The notes beneath the pieces are model-generated. The model did no database searches and was not told the origin of the DNA. It was given only the letters and a program-made list of their open reading frames with translations. This document shows, piece after piece, positions 1,856 through 12,520 of a stretch of 62,662 bases of DNA. Origin of the DNA: Candidatus Fermentibacteraceae bacterium (lineage in GTDB: Bacteria; Fermentibacterota; Fermentibacteria; Fermentibacterales; JCC-6); the NCBI GenBank assembly GCA_046485185.1, contig JAWOHL010000061.1, forward strand, positions 1 to 62,662. Direction: 5' to 3'. Position numbers and translations under genes: made by a program. The stretch's first letter is position 1; each line of letters opens with the position of its first letter.

Positions 1856-2030
1856 TTGTGTTCTCCTTATATATACGGTCATTTGTTTCACTGATGCATT
1901 AATCCTATATCAAGGAGTTGCAGAAAAGTAAAGACCCTCGAAAGTGCATTCCTCTGGTAACCCTCTTGACCCCTGCTCCCCGATTCACTAATTCATGGGC
2001 CTGAGGAGTCATTTCAAAAAAGGGGGGACC

Positions 2031-3935
2031 ATGAGGGAGACCTGGGGAAGCAGGCGGGCCTTCATTCTGGCGGCAATTGGAAGCGCCATAGGGCTCGGCA
2101 ACATCTGGAGATTCCCGTACATCGCGTACGCCAACGGCGGCGGAGCCTTTCTGGTGGCCTACTTCGCGTGCCTTTTCATCGCCGGCATTCCAGTTCTGAT
2201 GCTCGAGTTCGGCCTGGGACACAGGTACAGGCAGGCCGCTCCCGGAGCATTCAGGGGTATAAAGCCGTCACTTGAATGGTTTGGGTGGATGGCGGCGCTG
2301 CTTTCCTTCGTGATCGTTGTTTACTACGCCATAATCATGGGCTGGTGCATGAACTACACCTACGAGGCCGCCAGACAGGGATGGAGGCAGGAACCAGGTC
2401 TTCACGCCGACCCTTCCGTAGCCCTTGCCCCCACTGATCTTGCGGACATGGATGTTCTCACGCCGGTGCCCCTCGAGATGGAAGGAACTCCTTTCGTCTC
2501 GCCCGTGAATCGTGTTTCCGGAGTTGTGGCTGTCGAACCCACGACCCTTGTCGTACATGAGGGCAACATCTACGGTTTTGCTTCAAGGGCACAGGCCGGG
2601 GCTTTCGCCGACAACCCCAGTATCGATGAGAACCTTTCGATCGCGGCTATGGGAGGAGATGAAACAAGGCTTCTGGCTGGAATTCCTGCAGACCTTCTGG
2701 GCAGGCCCTTCATTTCTCCGGTGGACGGTTCCGAGGGGGTCGTGAGGAACATCTCCACCATTCTGATAGCCTACGACGGCGTTCTCTACGGGTTTGACAG
2801 CGTGGACGAAGCCAGCACCTTCATGGGTTCGCCGGGGGACTTCTTCTACAACCGGTTCCTCGGGCTGACTTCTTCGCCGTGGGACCTTGGAAGCTTCCGC
2901 TGGCCCCTTTTCATAGGCTTCGCCCTATCATGGGTTTGGATCATCGCAAGCATCTGGAAGGGAACCAAAACCGTGGGCCGCGTCGTCTACTACACGGTTA
3001 TCATCCCGTGGGTGCTGCTTCTTGTCTTCATAATTCGTGGGGTTACACTTCCGGGTGCGGCGGTGGGGCTTTCCTATTACCTCACGCCGGACTGGAGCCG
3101 GCTTCTCAGCGGCGACATCTGGCTGGCGGCCCTTACACAGGTTTTCTTCAGCCTGAGCGTTGGGTTCGGAGTGATGATCGCTTACGGAAGCTTTCTGCCC
3201 AAGAAAGCCAATCTGGCGGGAAACGCCTTTATCATCGGAATAGCCGATGCGCTGACCGCCTTCTGTGGGGGGCTTGCTGTCTTCAGCGCGCTTGGGTTCC
3301 AGGCGGCGCGTCTGGGAGTTCCCGTCAGCGAGGTCGTGAAGTCGGGACCAGGCCTTGCGTTCGTCGCCTACCCGCACATCATCTCCAGCCTTCCGGGGGC
3401 GGCTTTCTTCGGGGTTCTGTTCTTCGTCATGCTGCTCACATTGGCCGTTGATTCGGCTTTCAGCCTTGTTGAGGGGGTCACCGCTTCCCTGAAGGACAAG
3501 TGGGGGCTCTCCCACAAGCGGGTCAACCTGATCGTGGGCGGGACGGCGTTCCTGCTGGGGCTTCCCATGCTGACGGGCGCGGGGCTCTACATTCTGGACA
3601 TCGTGGACCACTTCATGAACAGTGTTGCCCTGGTGCTTGTTGTTCTTGGCCAGCTTCTGATCATAGGGTGGGCTTTCCCTGCCGAGAAGATGCGGACCTA
3701 CATCAACTCGAACTCGGGCATGCGCATAGGGTGGTGGTGGAACACCAGCGTAAGGTGGATCATACCCATGGGGATGTTCTGGATGCTGGCAAGCGAGCTT
3801 CAGGCCAGGGGGCTTTCAGCCTACGGCAACTTCGGGCTCAGAAGCCAGGACTTCCTTCTGGGTTGGCTGGTGGTTCTGATCCTGCCGGTTGCGGGAGACA
3901 TGCTGGCTTCCAGGAAAGGGGTCTGGAAGGACTAG
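2031..3935 (+). CDS. Sodium-dependent transporter, NSS/SNF family, with ~150-aa insertion in extracellular loop 2
   Basis: RETWGSRxxFILAAIGSAIGLGNIWRFPY, NGGGAF, QVFFSLSVGFG, GPGLAFVAYP are NSS hallmarks; ATG 2031 follows AGGGGG. Confidence 0.93.
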   Translation: MRETWGSRRAFILAAIGSAIGLGNIWRFPYIAYANGGGAFLVAYFACLFIAGIPVLMLEFGLGHRYRQAAPGAFRGIKPSLEWFGWMAALLSFVIVVYYAIIMGWCMNYTYEAARQGWRQEPGLHADPSVALAPTDLADMDVLTPVPLEMEGTPFVSPVNRVSGVVAVEPTTLVVHEGNIYGFASRAQAGAFADNPSIDENLSIAAMGGDETRLLAGIPADLLGRPFISPVDGSEGVVRNISTILIAYDGVLYGFDSVDEASTFMGSPGDFFYNRFLGLTSSPWDLGSFRWPLFIGFALSWVWIIASIWKGTKTVGRVVYYTVIIPWVLLLVFIIRGVTLPGAAVGLSYYLTPDWSRLLSGDIWLAALTQVFFSLSVGFGVMIAYGSFLPKKANLAGNAFIIGIADALTAFCGGLAVFSALGFQAARLGVPVSEVVKSGPGLAFVAYPHIISSLPGAAFFGVLFFVMLLTLAVDSAFSLVEGVTASLKDKWGLSHKRVNLIVGGTAFLLGLPMLTGAGLYILDIVDHFMNSVALVLVVLGQLLIIGWAFPAEKMRTYINSNSGMRIGWWWNTSVRWIIPMGMFWMLASELQARGLSAYGNFGLRSQDFLLGWLVVLILPVAGDMLASRKGVWKD

Positions 3936-5062: not shown

Positions 5063-6268
5063 TTAGATGTGGGCCGCAGGGTAGAAGGCCAAACCGCCCT
5101 GAAAGGAGTTCCAAACTTCGGTGTACTCCAGTTCGGAGGCCTGGCGGCGGATGAGGAACCATGCGGACAGACCGTTCTTCATCCTGTATTCCAGACCACC
5201 CCCGTAGGTTTCACGTCTGCGGGTGCCACCGGTGCCGGTGATGCTGCTGGGGCCCTCCCATATCCTTCCGTTCACGAGAACCGAAAGACCCCGGTAAACG
5301 CCCACACGGGTTTCCAGTTCGCCGAACCGGGTTCTGATGGAGCTTTCGGTGCCCTGGCCGTAAAGGCTGACGCTGGAGGGGTGTTCGCCCCAACCCGTGA
5401 AGGCGTACCTGAGCCTGGCGCCTGCCTGGTAGGCAGCAAGCCTGGTCACGTCTTCATCGAAGTCGATGGTCTGGCACACCGTGAAGTTGAAGGTGAGGTT
5501 CGGGGCAAGGGTCTGAACGGCCCGCACCCTTGCGGTGGCCCTTTCCGGAAGTGGTGTGCCGTTGTGGTCGTCGCCGGCCTGAACCGACCATGCAAGGTCG
5601 GCCATGACCTGTGTGCGGGTCGGCAGTGTCCGGGGGGCAAGGCTGGCCGCGAAGTCCACCCGGCTGTAGGTCTCGTCGAAATCGGCCCCTTCGATCGCGG
5701 TGTTGTGGCTCATGCCGCTGACGCCAAGGTCGACGCCAAGGGGAGTGTACCAGACGGCGCCGCCCCCGGCCCTGGTTTCTGCCCAGGCGAGGTCCTGGTC
5801 ATCCTGGTCGGACACGCTTCGGTCCCAGTAGCGGCCGAAGGCGCTCAGCCTGACCGTTCCGGGAAGTTCCCAGCCCAGGTTGAGACCGGGGCGCACCGAG
5901 CTTGTGCGCTCGCCGATCCCCTCGGATCGGGGCAGAACAACGCCGGAGCTGTCAAAGTCGGTGGTGAAGCGGAAATCGGGCCGCACCGTGAGGCCGCCTG
6001 CTCGGTAGCGCACTGAAAGAGTTGTTTCAGAGCGGTTCCGGGAAAAACGGGGAAGCGCCGCATTGTCTTCAGAGGCCTTCCTGTAGGTCTGGTCGAGTTG
6101 GAAGCGCCACGGGCCCTCGAACAGCCGGACTCCGGCGGATGCGTCGAGGTAGGCGCCGCCCCCGTAATTCACGCTGTCATTTGCCACTGATACTCGGGCG
6201 TACTCTTCAACACCCAGTGCCATGCAGCTCGCGAGAAGCCCCCAGAGCAGAACGATGACGGTTTTCAT
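5063..6268 (-). CDS. Putative outer-membrane beta-barrel protein
   Basis: True start ATG 6268 overlaps the upstream stop (TGATG); signal peptide MKTVIVLLWGLLASCMALG; many amphipathic alternating strands with aromatic residues; ends ...FQGGLAFYPAAHI. Confidence 0.6.
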   Translation of the reverse strand: MKTVIVLLWGLLASCMALGVEEYARVSVANDSVNYGGGAYLDASAGVRLFEGPWRFQLDQTYRKASEDNAALPRFSRNRSETTLSVRYRAGGLTVRPDFRFTTDFDSSGVVLPRSEGIGERTSSVRPGLNLGWELPGTVRLSAFGRYWDRSVSDQDDQDLAWAETRAGGGAVWYTPLGVDLGVSGMSHNTAIEGADFDETYSRVDFAASLAPRTLPTRTQVMADLAWSVQAGDDHNGTPLPERATARVRAVQTLAPNLTFNFTVCQTIDFDEDVTRLAAYQAGARLRYAFTGWGEHPSSVSLYGQGTESSIRTRFGELETRVGVYRGLSVLVNGRIWEGPSSITGTGGTRRRETYGGGLEYRMKNGLSAWFLIRRQASELEYTEVWNSFQGGLAFYPAAHI

Positions 6269-6510
6269 CAGAACACCGCTCCCTTCGGGCAGATCTCGAC
6301 GCAGCGGTAGCAGAGGCGGCAGAGCGTGGGGTTGATCACGGCGTCGCCATCCACGACCTCGATGGCGTTGTAGGGGCAGACCTTCTCGCATTCGCCGCAG
6401 CCTATGCAGAGGTCGTTGTCCACCACGAGACCCGTGTTATCTGTGGGGGCGGAACACGCGGCCAGCATAAGCAGGACCGCCAGTAACAGAGCCTCAGTGA
6501 ATCGCGTCAT
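6268..6510 (-). CDS. Lipoprotein 2[4Fe-4S] ferredoxin
   Basis: Lipobox LAAC after a hydrophobic stretch; CIGCGECEKVCP and CRLCYRCVEICP. Confidence 0.85.
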   Translation of the reverse strand: MTRFTEALLLAVLLMLAACSAPTDNTGLVVDNDLCIGCGECEKVCPYNAIEVVDGDAVINPTLCRLCYRCVEICPKGAVF

Positions 6511-6727
6511 AAGTGCACACCCCCTGGCAGAGCCCGCAGCCTATGCACTTGGCCGGGTCGATGCTGGATTTGCCGTTTTCAATCTCTATTGCATCAACGG
6601 GACAGACCCTGAAGCAGTCGCCGCAGCCCGAGCAGTTGTCGGACTCGACCCAGTAGCGAACCGCACCCACCGCTATGGCTGCCGTAAGAAACAGAACCAA
6701 AAGAATCCCCCCCCTGAAACGCATCAT
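6494..6727 (-). CDS. Signal-peptide-bearing 2[4Fe-4S] ferredoxin
   Basis: MMRFRGGILLVLFLTAAIAVGA signal; CSGCGDCFRVCP and CIGCGLCQGVCT. Confidence 0.85.
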   Translation of the reverse strand: MMRFRGGILLVLFLTAAIAVGAVRYWVESDNCSGCGDCFRVCPVDAIEIENGKSSIDPAKCIGCGLCQGVCTYDAIH

Positions 6728-7140
6728 TTCACCTCGAATTCGGCTTCTATCGGGATTTCTTCCTCGTTCACCCCGTAAAGCTCAAGGTTTTCCTCACCGA
6801 CCGTCACAATTGCGCCCACAGGGCACGATGCCACGCACAAACCGCAGAGGATGCACTTCTCGGGGTCGATCAAGGCCTTGTTGTCTTCGGTCATGCTTAT
6901 GGCGTCCACGGGGCATGTGGAGAGACAGAGCTGGCAGCCGATGCATGCCTCGGGGTTTATGATGTAGTCTTCGTTGAGCTCGACCGAACACTCCGTTGGG
7001 GCAACCTCGGCCATGATCCGGCCGAAGGATTTGACCCGGAGAGACTGGAAATCACCCTCGACGGGCGCCCATCTCAGTGTGAACAACCCGGCCGCAGCGG
7101 CAGCAGCGAGGGCAAGAACAATGAACGGGTGCTTTTTCAT
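6724..7140 (-). CDS. Signal-peptide-bearing 2[4Fe-4S] ferredoxin with FN3-like flanking strands
   Basis: Start ATG 7140 (GGAAAAGGAAAG upstream); MKKHPFIVLALAAAAAAG signal; CIGCQLCLSTCP and CILCGLCVASCP. Confidence 0.82.
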   Translation of the reverse strand: MKKHPFIVLALAAAAAAGLFTLRWAPVEGDFQSLRVKSFGRIMAEVAPTECSVELNEDYIINPEACIGCQLCLSTCPVDAISMTEDNKALIDPEKCILCGLCVASCPVGAIVTVGEENLELYGVNEEEIPIEAEFEVK

Positions 7141-7160
7141 TCTTTCCTTTTCCTTCCGGG

Positions 7161-8132
7161 TCAGCGCTGGGCTGGAGGAGGTGGGACTTCGGGCTGGGTT
7201 CCCGCGGGAAGCACCAGCCTTCTCACGGCCTGATTGTGCTGATAGTATTCGTCGGGGTTGATCACATCCCTGTAGTTCCAGCACTCAAGAAAACATTGTC
7301 CGCAGTTGATGCACAGGTCGTAATTGATGTAGACCATCCCGGGCAGTCCGTAGACGTTGTCGAGGTCCTGCCAGATGGCGTCGACCGGGCAGCCCGGCCC
7401 GGTGTACGCCCCGGAATCGTTGTACTCCATGAGCAGGGCACAGGTGGTGCAGGCCCCTTCGGGAGCGGTCGTCATGCATTTCAGACAACCCCCGAAAGGA
7501 ATGAAGTCGTAAATGTAAGTCACGATCTGCATGGGCTCGGATGAAACCTGTATGTCCTCGGAGGCTTCGGTCTCACCGAAGAAAGCCCTGATCCCCACGT
7601 AGTAGCCCTCGCCCATGCGGCCGCCTTCGATGGCGTTCACGGGGCAGGCGTCTTCGCAAAGGCCGCAGCTTCCGCAGAGGTCCTCATTAATCACTGCAAG
7701 GCCGTTCACGACCTCGATGGCCCTGTTGGGGAGGATGGGGCACGCAGCCTCGCAAAGGCCGCACCCGATGCAGGCTTCGGAGATTACCCGGGGCTGGAGG
7801 AACACCAGGGCTGACTCGGCGGGGGCGGGTATCTCGCCCGCAACAACGGCGCTGTTCCAGTTGTCTGTGGTGATGGGCGAGGTGGAAAGCCTTGCCTGGT
7901 ACCACGCGGCGCCCTCCACGGGCGTGAAGAAGACCGTGAACGCCTTGTACTCGCCACCCTTTATCCAGGTGTAGACCGAACCCAGTTCGGGGGACATGGC
8001 GGTGAAGCCCGTGTCCACAAGTACGGCCCCCGGTTGAACCGCCGCCGGCGCCATGGGGCGCGGGGTCTCGGTAAGGCACGCCGCCATGACCGCCAGAGCC
8101 ACAGTCAGGGCCACAACAATTCCCTTGAGCAT
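7161..8132 (-). CDS. Lipoprotein polyferredoxin (FN3-like domain plus two ferredoxin modules)
   Basis: ATG 8132 with GGAGG RBS; lipobox MAAC; CIGCGLCEAACP/CGSCGLCEDACP; second module CLKC..CTTC..CP..CINCGQCFLEC. Confidence 0.82.
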   Translation of the reverse strand: MLKGIVVALTVALAVMAACLTETPRPMAPAAVQPGAVLVDTGFTAMSPELGSVYTWIKGGEYKAFTVFFTPVEGAAWYQARLSTSPITTDNWNSAVVAGEIPAPAESALVFLQPRVISEACIGCGLCEAACPILPNRAIEVVNGLAVINEDLCGSCGLCEDACPVNAIEGGRMGEGYYVGIRAFFGETEASEDIQVSSEPMQIVTYIYDFIPFGGCLKCMTTAPEGACTTCALLMEYNDSGAYTGPGCPVDAIWQDLDNVYGLPGMVYINYDLCINCGQCFLECWNYRDVINPDEYYQHNQAVRRLVLPAGTQPEVPPPPAQR

Positions 8133-8285
8133 TATTGCCCTCCGTTTCAACGGATGTATCGTTCAAATGAAGATAGTATTCCCATGCACGTTCGGGTTCC
8201 CGGTGGAAACCACTGAACTTGTATACTATCTAATGGAATGATACCGAAGGCAAGGTTTCTGGAAACAAGAGGAAGATGGTGATCC

Positions 8286-8648
8286 GTGAAAATCGCCCTT
8301 GAACCCGAGGTCTCTCGCAAACGGCTTTTCGAAGGCGAGGGAGAGGCGGTCATCGAAAGCCTCTTCGCTCCCGGCGACTTCAGTGTTGGCATAAATGTCA
8401 GGCTGTGCGCCAGGATAACTATTCCGGCCGGCGGCTCCATAGGCTACCACGTGCACCGGGGGGAGGACGAGCTTTACTACATACTCTCCGGAAGCGGAAT
8501 GGTGAACGACGCCGGGGAAACCCGGGACGTCTTTCCCGGTTCGGCCATTCTCACAAGAAGCGGGGAAGGGCATGAACTCGTAAATACCGGCTCGGGGGAG
8601 CTGGTTCTTCTGGCGGTGATCCCGGTCTGGTCCGGAGGGAAACGGTAA
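8286..8648 (+). CDS. Cupin domain protein
   Basis: GTG start; IGYHVHRGEDELYYILSGSG and GEGHELVNTG cupin motifs. Confidence 0.88.
   Translation: MKIALEPEVSRKRLFEGEGEAVIESLFAPGDFSVGINVRLCARITIPAGGSIGYHVHRGEDELYYILSGSGMVNDAGETRDVFPGSAILTRSGEGHELVNTGSGELVLLAVIPVWSGGKR
8558..8626 (+). repeat. Direct repeat copy A (3' end of cupin gene)
   Basis: 69 bp, 61/69 identical to 10441-10509. Confidence 0.9.
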
Positions 8649-8669
8649 AGGGAACTATCGGCAAGTCAG

Positions 8670-8700
8670 GGCGGGGGAGGCCCCTCCAACCCCCCCCGCC
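8670..8700. terminator. GC-rich hairpin between convergent cupin and esterase genes
   Basis: GGCGGGGG (8670-8677) pairs with CCCCCGCC (8693-8700); no clear U-tract. Confidence 0.35.
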
Positions 8701-8706
8701 TCTACG

Positions 8707-10026
8707 TTATCGGATCACGGTCACTTTACCTGAGACAAGTTCTCCTTCGCAGGCTATCCCGTAGAAGTACAAGCCGGAGGGGAACCCCCCGGCGCTGACT
8801 CTCACGGTATGGCTGCCTGACTCGAGAATGCCGTCGTGGAGAGTGGATACCCTTCTCCCGGCGCAGTCGAAAAGAGACATGCGCACATTCCCGGGGGCTG
8901 CCATTTCGAAGGTTATCCCGATCTCGCCGGATGGGTCGACGGAGGCGTGATGGCTCCCGAGAATACTTGCGGGAACGGCTGAACTGTATTCGCCACCGTC
9001 CCGTCCGTCCCAATTGTGGTGCATGGCGGAACACAGGAAATCAAGCGCGATCGGGAACCTCTCGGTGAGTTTGTCGAAGTGTCCTCCTTCGAAGACCTGG
9101 TACTCGTAGTCGATTCCCATCACGTCAAGTGAGCAGGCGAAAGCGTTGGAGGAAGGCATGATGTAGAACTGGTCCTGGGTGCCGGCATCGAAGTACACCC
9201 TGCCGTTATGCCTCCAGGGCGGAACAGCCAGGTTCTGGACCAGGTTGGGCATGTTGTGCTGCATCCAGAGTTCCCATACCCCTGGTATGAGGTTGGCGTA
9301 CGGATCCAGTGGAAGGTCAACGTAGAAGGGCGGATTGGTGAGATTTGGGGAAAAGGCCCCGGACATGCTGAACAGCACTGCATTGGCGAACCCGGCGCTG
9401 GGTGTGTAGAACCAGGGAGGACCCTGCTGCCCCATGGCCTGGAGTTCGGCAAGCACACCATAAACGTTGATCATGAGCATGCTGGGCAGGTCGAGACCGG
9501 AGGCGCATACCCCCGCGGCGCAGCAGTAAAGGTCAGGGTGCTGCCCGTAGTACATGAGCGCCCCGTAACCGCCCATGGAGTGACCCATGAGGGCTCTCTT
9601 CATCCGGCTTGGAATGGTTCTGAAACTGGCGTCCGTCCAGGCGATGAGGTCTGTGGACATGTAACCCTCCATATCCCCGTAAAGCGCTGAGCTTGTGTAG
9701 AATGACGCCGGGTACGGGGATGAGAATCCGTCGGGCCTCACCACGATGACCGGTTTGATCTGATGGGTTTCGATCATCTCGTCCAGGGTTGCCACCAGTG
9801 TGGGGAATTCGTTGTGGCCGAGAAGTATCCCGGCACCGTGGAAATAGTAGATCACGGGATACCTTCCGATCCCCTGGGGCTGGTAGCCCTCCGGAAGGTA
9901 AACCTGCACGCTCTTCTCCTGACCCAGCGCCGGGCTGAAGAACGAAGTGTTCACTATGGTCCCCCCCGCGAACACTTCCAGAGGCAGAGCCAGAAGGAGC
10001 ATGGCTGTGAGCAGAACCCTGTACAT
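8707..10026 (-). CDS. Secreted alpha/beta-hydrolase (putative esterase family) with C-terminal sorting-type domain
   Basis: Start ATG 10026, signal MYRVLLTAMLLLALPLEVFA; YLPEGY..YPVIYYFHG, GHSMGG nucleophile elbow, DAGTQD, GGH; C-terminal FDCAGRRV...SGLYFY. Confidence 0.88.
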   Translation of the reverse strand: MYRVLLTAMLLLALPLEVFAGGTIVNTSFFSPALGQEKSVQVYLPEGYQPQGIGRYPVIYYFHGAGILLGHNEFPTLVATLDEMIETHQIKPVIVVRPDGFSSPYPASFYTSSALYGDMEGYMSTDLIAWTDASFRTIPSRMKRALMGHSMGGYGALMYYGQHPDLYCCAAGVCASGLDLPSMLMINVYGVLAELQAMGQQGPPWFYTPSAGFANAVLFSMSGAFSPNLTNPPFYVDLPLDPYANLIPGVWELWMQHNMPNLVQNLAVPPWRHNGRVYFDAGTQDQFYIMPSSNAFACSLDVMGIDYEYQVFEGGHFDKLTERFPIALDFLCSAMHHNWDGRDGGEYSSAVPASILGSHHASVDPSGEIGITFEMAAPGNVRMSLFDCAGRRVSTLHDGILESGSHTVRVSAGGFPSGLYFYGIACEGELVSGKVTVIR

Positions 10027-10440
10027 CTCCGTACACCCCTCTCTCAAGACATGCTGCTGACAGCCGGTGTTTCCGGCCTGTTCCGGCGGCGCCGACACTG
10101 ATACCGCTCGGAGGGGAAGTAGCCTGAGACAAGCAAGTTAGAGGATGTACCCCATGTTCTTGTCGGTGCTGCCGACAGCAGCCCCTGGTGGTGTATATAC
10201 GCCATCGCATATGATGTCAATAACAGTGATTCTTTACGTGTTGTATATGGTAAAGGATGATGATATTCTTATATATTCAATAATATTGGGTCTTTGTGTA
10301 TTGTATTATCTAAATGCCATATACAACACTAGTATGGAATACTATATGTACATAATTACCGTTTCTGTACGTAATGCTGTTCGCACCTGTCTGCTCCCTG
10401 TTCCGTGCCAGTCCATGACCCCCCCACTCAGTTCTGTCAT

Positions 10441-10984: not shown

Positions 10985-12520
10985 TTACCGGGCCACGACC
11001 ATGCGGGTGTTGCGTGAGCTGCCCGCGGAAGTCACCCTGATGGTGTAAACACCCATGGGAAGTGAGGAGGCATCCACCGAAACCATGTTCTCACCCGGTG
11101 TGAGGAGGATAGTCTCCCGGTGCACCGACCTGCCGGCGATGTCGAATACCTGGAGGCCGGCCTGAGCCGGTGACAGTGCCTGAATCCTGACCATTGCCGA
11201 GGAGGAGACCGGGTTGGGCTGGACGCTGAGTGGTGCGCCCGAAAAAACCGGAGCACTGGCGGCATCGCCGATGCCGGTTTCGACCGGGTCTGCAAGGTAG
11301 GCAACCGCTGCGATGCATGCCTTTGCCATGTTGGTTCCGAAGGGGAAGTACTGCATGTAGTTAGCCATCAGGTCGGTCGTCTGGTGGTAGTAAGGGTTGC
11401 TGAAGACCTGCCGCTCGATGTTAAGCATGGCGGCGTAGCCGCTGTACCAGAAACTGGCGTGATCGCTGGCGCCGGAAGGGCTTGAGGCGACCTCCATTGA
11501 AAGAGCCGGAACGTAGGTGTCGCTTATGGCCTGGAAGGCAACGCCAAGACCTGTGGATGCGGTGTTGTAGTGGAGCCATGCGATGTCGTTCCCTGCGGGG
11601 CCGTAGAATATCATGTCCATGTTGACCACGCCCATGATGCTGTCGCCGGCCGCGGCTGCCTGAGTGGCGTAGTATTCGCTGCCGTAGAGGCCCTGTTCCT
11701 CGCCGCCGAAGAGCATGTACTTGATCGTGTACTCGAACTGGTACTGGCTCATGAGCCTTGCGGCCTCGACCACCGCTGCGGAACCGCTGCCGTTGTCATC
11801 GGCGCCCGGGGCGTTGTAGGAGGGGTTGGGTGAAGTGCTGTCGAGGTGGCCGCAGATGACCCAGTAGCGGTTGGGGTAGAGCGTGCCGGTCTGGGTCGCT
11901 ATCACATTCTGGCAGTTGTAGCTTCCCATCGGAAAGGGCTGTATCTCGACTTCGAGCCCCATGCCTTCGAACCTTTCCTGGCTCCAGGCGCACGCGGTGT
12001 CGAACCCGTCGGAGTTGGAGTGCCGGGTCAGGTAGTTCTGATAGTTCGTGGTGTAGTTGATGAGCGAGTCCTGGTTGACGGCAGCCACGATGTCGGCCAC
12101 AACAGCGTCGTAACCGCTGCGCATTGGTATGGGGATGGGGTGCGCCGGAGCTCTGTTCTCCCGCAGGGGCTGGATGTGGTGAATGCCCGGACGCACGAAG
12201 TCTTCCGGCATGGGTCCCGAAAGCCTGACAATCACTGTATTGCCGTCGCGGTAGACCGGTTCGCCGATCCCGGCTATGTCAAGCATGCCGGCTTCGGTCC
12301 GGACTGTCACCAGCGCGAAGTCCGCAAGACCCCTTGCGCCCGAGTCGAGAACCCGTGAGTCGGCGGTGGGGAAGCCCAGACCAACTATGTGATCATGCGC
12401 CCTGTAGACCACTATGTATCCGTCACGTGCCTCGGCTTCAGGGTCGGGGATGATGAAGAGACCCGCGCCGAAAGCCTGAACCGCAATGAGGACGAGCGCA
12501 AAAAAAAGTGCTTTCTTCAT
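10985..12520 (-). CDS. Secreted M28 family aminopeptidase with C-terminal sorting-type domain
   Basis: Signal peptide; GHLDS, GADDNGSG, GEEQGL, NMDMI, SDH, YHQTTD; C-terminal PNPV...FDIAGR...GVYTIRV. Confidence 0.92.
   Translation of the reverse strand: MKKALFFALVLIAVQAFGAGLFIIPDPEAEARDGYIVVYRAHDHIVGLGFPTADSRVLDSGARGLADFALVTVRTEAGMLDIAGIGEPVYRDGNTVIVRLSGPMPEDFVRPGIHHIQPLRENRAPAHPIPIPMRSGYDAVVADIVAAVNQDSLINYTTNYQNYLTRHSNSDGFDTACAWSQERFEGMGLEVEIQPFPMGSYNCQNVIATQTGTLYPNRYWVICGHLDSTSPNPSYNAPGADDNGSGSAAVVEAARLMSQYQFEYTIKYMLFGGEEQGLYGSEYYATQAAAAGDSIMGVVNMDMIFYGPAGNDIAWLHYNTASTGLGVAFQAISDTYVPALSMEVASSPSGASDHASFWYSGYAAMLNIERQVFSNPYYHQTTDLMANYMQYFPFGTNMAKACIAAVAYLADPVETGIGDAASAPVFSGAPLSVQPNPVSSSAMVRIQALSPAQAGLQVFDIAGRSVHRETILLTPGENMVSVDASSLPMGVYTIRVTSAGSSRNTRMVVAR

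Follow-up and report, generated by a model that had tools for sequence, protein, structure and literature searches.

We analysed a contig of 62,662 nucleotides from a Candidatus Fermentibacteraceae bacterium of the phylum Fermentibacterota (GenBank assembly GCA_046485185.1, contig JAWOHL010000061.1; referred to here, at its full length, as the window) and describe a cassette of six closely packed genes, A to F, that stand in tandem on its minus strand from position 8132 to 3932. Four of them (A–D) encode [4Fe-4S] ferredoxins with export signals and without a signal for the twin-arginine translocation (Tat) pathway, E encodes a predicted outer-membrane barrel and F an inner-membrane protein of the DsbD/CcdA type. 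According to the textbook rule, iron–sulfur (Fe-S) proteins are loaded with their clusters in the cytoplasm and reach the periplasm only in folded form via Tat; ferredoxins with Sec or lipoprotein signals in nearly every genome of the phylum conflict with this rule. We propose, with a probability of about 0.55, that A–D are exported as apo-ferredoxins by the Sec and lipoprotein pathways, acquire their clusters in a reducing periplasm and make up an electron route of the cell envelope that needs no haem. The initial annotation of this DNA had pointed to Fe-S proteins apparently exported without Tat signals, and this observation holds, as the domains are canonical and A–D contain no twin arginine (RR). 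All evidence is computational, and judged from it the system appears to be categorically new: a full-text literature search that included papers on Fermentibacteria and Fibrobacter returned no description of the cassette or of Sec- or lipoprotein-exported ferredoxins, and the Fermentibacteria genome papers (PMC5030696, PMC5763382) do not mention the cassette.

Ferredoxin domains and export signals of A to D

All four proteins match ferredoxin families of Pfam (A, Fer4, 1.8e-14; B, Fer4_21, 1.5e-19; C, Fer4, 2.1e-15; D, Fer4, 1.3e-17). The motif CxxCxxCxxxC occurs three times in A and twice each in B, C and D, and A contains four further invariant cysteines, giving 16 ligand cysteines besides the cysteine of its lipobox, which is enough for a predicted set of about four [4Fe-4S] clusters. 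The full complement of motifs is retained in 46/46 orthologues of A, 42/48 of B, 49/49 of C and 50/51 of D, and all ligand cysteines and CP prolines are conserved as in true ferredoxins. When the profile of A is compared with PDB sequences, its closest relatives are FwdF (1.5e-40, over four stretches), MvhB and then RnfB (range 1.5e-40 to 1e-24), in which chains of [4Fe-4S] clusters act as electron wires; these three are all cytoplasmic and, unlike A, lack a lipobox or signal peptide, and the N-terminal helix of RnfB is oppositely oriented. By these features A–D are canonical [4Fe-4S] ferredoxin modules, with cluster binding predicted for each. A and B also share a beta-rich segment of about 90 amino acids between signal peptide and first ferredoxin domain (W..P..GA..Y..R pattern, FN3-like), for which no Pfam match was found at E<=0.01.

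One option raised in the initial annotation, that the cysteines serve a different metal, is made unlikely by the canonical motifs and by FwdF, MvhB and RnfB as nearest solved relatives. In a wider form, the proteins would be exported by Sec, with their cysteines forming disulfides or binding a different metal or a sulfur species, for instance in a module that binds or stores metals or polysulfide. Such a role would dispense with periplasmic cluster insertion, for which no route is known, and would suit both the sulfur-rich habitats of these organisms (PMC5763382) and the affiliation of F, whose clan also contains metal and anion transporters and which sources label 'sulfite exporter TauE/SafE'. 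We nevertheless regard this account as decidedly improbable, given the ferredoxin-like conservation of ligand cysteines and CP prolines, the similarity of A to FwdF and MvhB over four stretches, and a genome without oxidative-folding machinery to make disulfides. Evidence of another kind comes from B, of which 6/48 orthologues keep only one full CxxCxxCxxxC motif: in the single one of these six whose altered motif was read (L007:8177-8677), it is CxxDxxCxxxCP, a Cys-to-Asp ligand swap. Such a swap is Fe-S-specific, being typical of [3Fe-4S] or Asp-ligated [4Fe-4S] ferredoxins and not of disulfides, and the ferredoxin fold is itself not stable without clusters.

The four N-termini quoted initially are present on the minus strand (A, MLKGIVVALTVALAVMAAC; B, MKKHPFIVLALAAAAAAG; C, MMRFRGGILLVLFLTAAIAVGA; D, MTRFTEALLLAVLLMLAAC), and at the supported starts none has a twin arginine. 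For A, initiation at an upstream TTG (position 8150) does give MKRRAIM, as had been pointed out, together with the argument that the Shine–Dalgarno sequence GGAGG (Table 1) favours the ATG. Both arginine codons of the TTG frame (CGG AGG) turn out to be this GGAGG. Across A orthologues from 47 loci, the conserved start is preceded at a distance of 5–9 nt by GGAGG or AGGAG, but the in-frame RR is not retained: the Shine–Dalgarno sequence is read as RR, NGG or LEAA or lies in a frame closed by a stop codon, and the N-terminus of most orthologues is simply MLK, MKK or VKK. We rejected the start at TTG 8150 because close relatives keep GGAGG while reading NGG, LEAA and the like in that frame; since the RR codons are a conserved ribosome-binding site whose in-frame reading varies, the RR of A is an artefact and ATG 8132 is the start.

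We tested for lipoprotein signals with the pattern [LVI][ASTVI][GAS]-C at position 15–35, following a basic n-region and an uncharged h-region. A and D carry signals with these elements, A with a signal peptide at residues 1–19 and the lipobox VMAAC (Cys at 19) and D with the lipobox MLAAC (Cys at 19). The lipobox cysteine of A is present in 47/47 loci, and likewise invariant in 31/31 aligned homologues, with a strict PROSITE-type lipobox in 45/47; that of D is present in 51/51 orthologues, with a strict lipobox in 49/51. B has a short Sec type I signal that ends in a small-x-small cleavage-type site and is conserved in 47 orthologues. RR is absent from any credible n-region of A and D orthologues (for D, it occurs in none), and in B it is found within the 12 amino acids upstream in 3/47 orthologues, none forming a Tat pattern, with one chance MRR. 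The h-regions reach 12-residue Kyte–Doolittle maxima of 2.96 (A), 2.64 (B), 2.99 (C) and 3.07 (D), with a range of 2.6–3.1 for the window set, and A–D show neither an S/T-R-R-x-F-L-K motif in the n-region nor a moderately hydrophobic h-region. Many A orthologues are acidic after the lipidated cysteine (CL[STK]E...), which recalls the surface-export signal of Bacteroidetes lipoproteins. Signal-like N-termini and cysteine motifs persist in orthologues with as little as 35% identity across some 50 genomes at species level, and this conservation argues that neither is due to chance. Database matches are labelled Ca. Sabulitectum, Fermentibacter or Aegiribacteria, which places the organism in Fermentibacterota. 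We consider targeting by Sec and signal peptidase II probable; on the signals described, A and D are predicted lipoproteins, B a Sec type I substrate, and C a protein with either a signal peptide or a signal anchor.

If the N-terminal segments were instead uncleaved anchors and the ferredoxin domains, like those of RnfB, faced the cytoplasm, there would be no export problem. There are cytoplasmic polyferredoxins with an N-terminal anchor, RnfB is one of the closest relatives of known structure, and this genome codes for an RnfB with an N-terminal helix; in C, the ferredoxin is joined to the hydrophobic segment with almost no linker, its fold starting within about 7 residues of the h-region. 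The distribution of charge is the opposite of that in RnfB, however: in the cassette, lysine or arginine precedes the hydrophobic stretch and acidic or neutral residues follow it, while in the RnfB encoded by this genome basic residues are missing ahead of the stretch and KK follows it. The invariant lipobox cysteines of A and D, the small-x-small site of B, the signal-peptide barrel E in the same operon, whose start overlaps the stop of D, and the large C-terminal domain of F, which is also predicted to be periplasmic, point the same way. A cytoplasmic orientation, named at the outset as a finding that would overturn the idea of export, is thus opposed by charge distribution, lipoboxes and the co-encoded barrel, and we hold it to be highly improbable.

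The Tat translocase and the signal of C

A search of the genome, which is 98.6% complete, for the Tat translocase found TatC (1.4e-64) and TatA (5.7e-15), so lack of the translocase does not account for the lack of RR. Across the phylum, 46/46 high-quality genomes encode TatC, which made a comparison with cassette genomes devoid of TatC uninformative. A crude genome-wide scan for RR signals returned mostly false positives and ordinary lipoproteins starting with MRR, and no clear cofactor-bearing Tat substrate. A conserved RR signal on each subunit, which would have spoken against the initial annotation, is not seen in the homologues: none is credible in A, B or D, and in C the n-region classes of 49 orthologues are RR in 14, RK/KR in 15, KK in 10, RxR in 8 and others in 2, the present genome (MMRFR) belonging to the RxR class.

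Cassettes of related composition occur in the sister phylum Fibrobacterota (Fibrobacter, Chitinispirillaceae, Chitinivibrionales), where F-like genes stand behind rows of small ferredoxins and an open reading frame (ORF) of 410–460 amino acids with a signal peptide. There, the product of the C-type gene has MNRRTILR, RRRTILK or MNRRSLLK at its N-terminus ahead of a core of mild hydrophobicity (2.0–2.3), the combination of a textbook Tat signal, while its operon neighbours have lipoboxes or Sec type I signals. In the C orthologues of Fermentibacterota, the mean Kyte–Doolittle maximum is 3.14, compared with 1.97–2.33 (about 2.1) in the Tat-type orthologues of Fibrobacterota. These sequences suggest that C was ancestrally a Tat substrate when the other members were already of the Sec type, and that in Fermentibacterota the Tat motif is eroding and the core has become Sec-like. 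With Tat signals on some and Sec signals on others, the orthologous ferredoxins of the two phyla provide a natural series in which to study the change of a substrate from Tat to Sec. In five Fibrobacterota cassettes (L065, L067, L068, L070, L075; about 5.2–6.7 kb), there are five ferredoxin genes, the first encoding a lipoprotein of 820–1045 amino acids, and one of the small ferredoxins of L065 has both an RR motif and a lipobox (NRRTVLRQLGMLVLLAAVKC).

These observations bear on a second option of the initial annotation, the 'hitch-hiking' of the complex on one Tat-bearing subunit, which fails for A, the largest subunit, where the RR is a ribosome-binding site, and finds some support in the Tat ancestry of the small subunit C. 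In such a scheme, clusters would be acquired in the cytoplasm and the folded complex would travel on C, whose dibasic n-region would be a relaxed Tat signal recognized by the phylum's TatC, the N-termini of A, B and D being later anchors or lipidation sites. It is favoured by the MNRRTILR/K signals with a mildly hydrophobic h-region in Fibrobacterota, by the RR in Fermentibacterota C orthologues, by RK/KR, KK or RxR at the same place in all but two of the others, and by the presence of TatA here and of TatC throughout the phylum; hitch-hiking is moreover an established mode of Tat export (PMC10924467). Still, C of this genome reads MMRFR, and its orthologues have an h-region as hydrophobic as those of signals for Sec or the signal recognition particle (SRP). 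KK, found in 10/49 species, blocks Tat transport in model systems. Known hitch-hikers have no signal peptides of their own, whereas A, B and D each have a conserved one; the lipobox cysteines are invariant, in some A orthologues the hydrophobic stretch is not preceded by a single basic residue (LNN...), and so strongly hydrophobic an N-terminus would be captured by SRP or Sec. We consider Tat-dependent export of the complex unlikely.

Two groups of known proteins are relevant for this comparison. Ferredoxin-type proteins with 2–4 [4Fe-4S] clusters act on the periplasmic side in NapG, NrfC, HybA, DsrO and HmcB and in the hitch-hikers DmsB and PsrB, and the Tat signal type of NapG-like ferredoxins is exactly that of the Fibrobacterota C orthologue; A, B and D differ from them in their Sec or lipoprotein signals without RR, and C of this genome in its lack of the motif and its Sec-like core. 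In dual Sec–Tat membrane proteins, such as actinobacterial Rieske and polyferredoxin families, Fe-S domains likewise come to lie outside the membrane with the help of Sec-inserted hydrophobic segments, but these proteins have several transmembrane helices and an internal twin arginine before the last one (PMC5449189), where A–D have a single N-terminal segment and no such motif.

The barrel E, the DsbD-like protein F and a possible electron route

F matches the Pfam family DsbD_2 (1.5e-23) and is the best-conserved gene of the cassette, with at least 46% identity across the phylum. Its AlphaFold2 model (pLDDT 75 overall, about 90 in the C-terminal domain) has six helices, followed by an alpha/beta domain of about 170 amino acids and a Cys-rich tail. 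Cysteines are invariant in loop 3 (C99xxC102) and in transmembrane helix 4 (TM4; C126-P) and nearly invariant in TM1 (C17 and C21-G-P), and the tail contains C354...C359xxC362, of which C359xxC362 is invariant. Loops 1, 3 and 5 hold about 10 K/R against 1 in loops 2 and 4, from which the positive-inside rule predicts that both termini and the C-terminal domain are periplasmic, and the cysteine layout is what a DsbD/CcdA-like thiol relay needs. F resembles CcdA and DsbD in its six helices, in the Cys-Pro motifs of TM1 and TM4 and in being encoded with exported Cys-rich apoproteins; unlike them, it resides in a genome without a cytochrome c system, has an extra CxxC in a predicted cytoplasmic loop, and carries in place of a thioredoxin-like partner the C-terminal domain with its CxxC tail, for which no thioredoxin or other PDB match was found. 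In Ca. Sabulitectum silens JCC-6 (L057:7944-9106), F is split into two ORFs (7944-8588 and 8654-9106) by a frameshift or an assembly error in the draft genome.

E has an ordinary signal peptide, typically starting with MK or MR (50 orthologues), and no Pfam match. An AlphaFold2 model from a 14-sequence alignment (pLDDT 80.5) contains 20 beta strands, and its top Foldseek matches are outer-membrane barrels, namely Cir, ZnuD and FrpB, which are barrels of TonB-dependent receptors, and ushers; MtrB (6r2q_B) appears at rank 6 (TMq 0.54) as one of many barrels. This model predicts that E is an outer-membrane barrel. Its family is tiny, with 22 cluster representatives among 1.84 billion proteins, and is present in 63/70 genomes of the phylum, 44/46 of high quality and 14/14 genera. 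Profile comparison of E with the positionally equivalent 414-aa ORF of Fibrobacter detected no homology, which leaves a positional analogy only across the two phyla. In six genomes from two genera (G047, G049, G051, G053, G061, G008), the match to E contains one in-frame stop (TGA in three, TAG in three), which may be either an artefact at the edge of the alignment or a genuine break in the gene.

Fermentibacteria are strictly anaerobic and obligately fermentative, have no respiratory chain, and inhabit sulfidic or methane-rich sediments and digesters (PMC5030696, PMC5763382); the DNA runs that contain the window are mud-volcano, sediment and hydrocarbon metagenomes. In this genome, we found no match to the Cytochrom_C_asm family of CcmC/CcmF/ResC-type cytochrome c assembly and no ORF with at least two CxxCH, so F cannot serve cytochrome c maturation. 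DsbA, DsbB and VKOR were not found either, and hence periplasmic cysteines should not be oxidised enzymatically. The lipoprotein machinery is encoded (LGT, 1.7e-54; LspA, Peptidase_A8, 1.8e-34).

From these features we infer the export route, the loading of clusters after export, the role of F, and the direction and purpose of electron flow. A–D would cross the inner membrane via Sec, unfolded and without clusters; A and D would be processed by Lgt and LspA, the signal of B would be cleaved, and C would retain a signal or anchor descended from a Tat signal. About ten [4Fe-4S] clusters would then be inserted in the periplasm, which in a strict anaerobe without DsbA, DsbB and VKOR should be reducing and, in anoxic and probably sulfidic habitats, is likely to contain Fe(II) and sulfide. 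In vitro, the apo form of clostridial ferredoxin regains its clusters spontaneously when given Fe2+, sulfide and a thiol. The co-transcribed F would transfer reducing equivalents across the inner membrane, or perhaps a cluster or a metal species, and so either hold the 40 ligand cysteines in the reduced state, in the way CcdA acts on apocytochrome c, or deliver a precursor. Together with the barrel, the ferredoxins would carry electrons away from the inner membrane to the outer membrane or the cell surface without the use of haem, serving as a sink for the surplus electrons of an obligate fermenter. Extracytoplasmic assembly aided by the DsbD_2 protein, a further option of the initial annotation, fits best with the conservation of F, its invariant cysteines and the lack of a Ccm system, the part played by F itself being a proposal. 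Judged separately, cluster loading after export has about even odds, and a conduit function falls slightly below even. The fully specified version, a haem-free porin–ferredoxin conduit with about ten clusters inserted after Sec or lipoprotein export and a DsbD-like protein supplying reductant or a cluster precursor, is more tentative; such a conduit would be a core trait of Fermentibacterota and would be present in Fibrobacterota too.

Several points weigh against the proposal of post-export loading. We know of no extracytoplasmic Fe-S assembly system in any organism, and none was found in the full-text literature search. C keeps RR in 29% of species, its Fibrobacterota orthologues are by their signal canonical Tat substrates, and with TatC in every high-quality genome the absence of the translocase cannot be used as an argument against Tat involvement. 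The topology of F follows from the positive-inside rule only, and its mechanism is deduced from motifs because F has no PDB match by sequence and no significant one by fold. No inner-membrane electron-input module is evident in the cassette, and what RNA evidence there is, from a relative, is sparse. The genome encodes one NapH/MauN-like membrane polyferredoxin (CxxxCP motifs and two Fer4) away from the cassette (contig C58:2453-3319, plus strand), which could serve as inner-membrane electron input; we rejected it as a conserved partner, since only 2 Fermentibacterota loci have such a gene within 8 kb of the cassette.

The nearest functional analogues of the cassette are the porin–cytochrome conduits MtrCAB of Shewanella (PDB 6R2Q), PioAB/MtoAB and Pcc of Geobacter, which share with it the combination, in one operon, of a large outer-membrane barrel with lipoprotein or periplasmic multi-centre redox proteins, and a presumed role in electron transfer across the envelope. 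In contrast to MtrCAB, the cassette has no haems, its genome has no Ccm system and its predicted redox centres are [4Fe-4S] clusters; E has about 20 strands rather than 26, no sequence homology to MtrB and no relatives outside its own small family, and cofactor biogenesis would have to differ entirely. The cassette turns the question of Fe-S assembly outside the cytoplasm into a concrete, testable case. If the proposal is true, it would represent the first case in which Fe-S clusters are formed beyond the cytoplasm, would show that trans-envelope electron transfer has been solved a second time and independently, and would extend the repertoire of extracellular electron transfer to haem-free organisms. 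The prediction of exported metalloproteins would then have to change, as filters for Tat motifs would miss such proteins, and 'obligate fermenters' of digesters and sulfidic sediments might discharge electrons to minerals, sulfur or partner cells.

Gene order, transcripts and neighbouring genes

The coordinates of the cassette are given in Table 1. The stop codon of D overlaps the ATG of E, and the order A-B-C-D-E-F is kept in every Fermentibacterota locus with enough flanking sequence (about 45 loci). In four loci (L018, L038, L057, L061), 2–3 tandem copies of A lie upstream of the cassette.

Table 1 Features of the ferredoxin cassette in the window
Feature	Position	Strand	Description	Start or location
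Gene A	8132-7161	minus	323 aa polyferredoxin lipoprotein (predicted)	ATG 8132
Gene B	7140-6724	minus	138 aa 2x[4Fe-4S] ferredoxin	ATG 7140
Gene C	6727-6494	minus	77 aa clostridial-type 2x[4Fe-4S] ferredoxin	ATG 6727
Gene D	6510-6268	minus	80 aa 2x[4Fe-4S] ferredoxin lipoprotein (predicted)	ATG 6510
Gene E	6268-5063	minus	401 aa signal-peptide protein, predicted 20-strand outer-membrane beta-barrel	
Gene F	5038-3932	minus	368 aa DsbD_2/CcdA-like six-helix inner-membrane protein	
Shine-Dalgarno GGAGG	8143-8139	minus	ribosome-binding site of gene A	6 nt upstream of gene A ATG 8132

No RNA runs holding the window were found. Parts of A, B, D and E in the cassette of Ca. Sabulitectum silens, along with its E/F junction, are covered by salt-lake metatranscriptome contigs (150–276 nt, 93–100% identical), and this suggests that the module is transcribed in nature; the contigs are short and do not define the 5′ end.

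On the far side of F, the sequence of the plus-strand ORF at 1995-3935 resembles that of neurotransmitter:sodium symporters (NSS/SNF), a reading that also draws on a PF00209 gene occupying the corresponding position in L005; the ORF is convergent with F, the stop codons of the two overlap, and the protein has a repeat-containing insertion of about 150 amino acids in an external loop. Several relatives (L003, L005, L008) have a gene resembling HpcH/HpaI or citrate lyase beta after F, which is absent in the window. Upstream of A, an esterase, scanned against Pfam, and an ORF read as a peptidase from its sequence alone (8707-10098 and 10985-12520, both on the minus strand) have signal peptides and similar beta-rich C-terminal tails (...YFYGIACEGELVSGKVTVIR; ...GVYTIRVTSAGSSRNTRMVVAR), which resemble type IX secretion or FlgD-Ig sorting domains.

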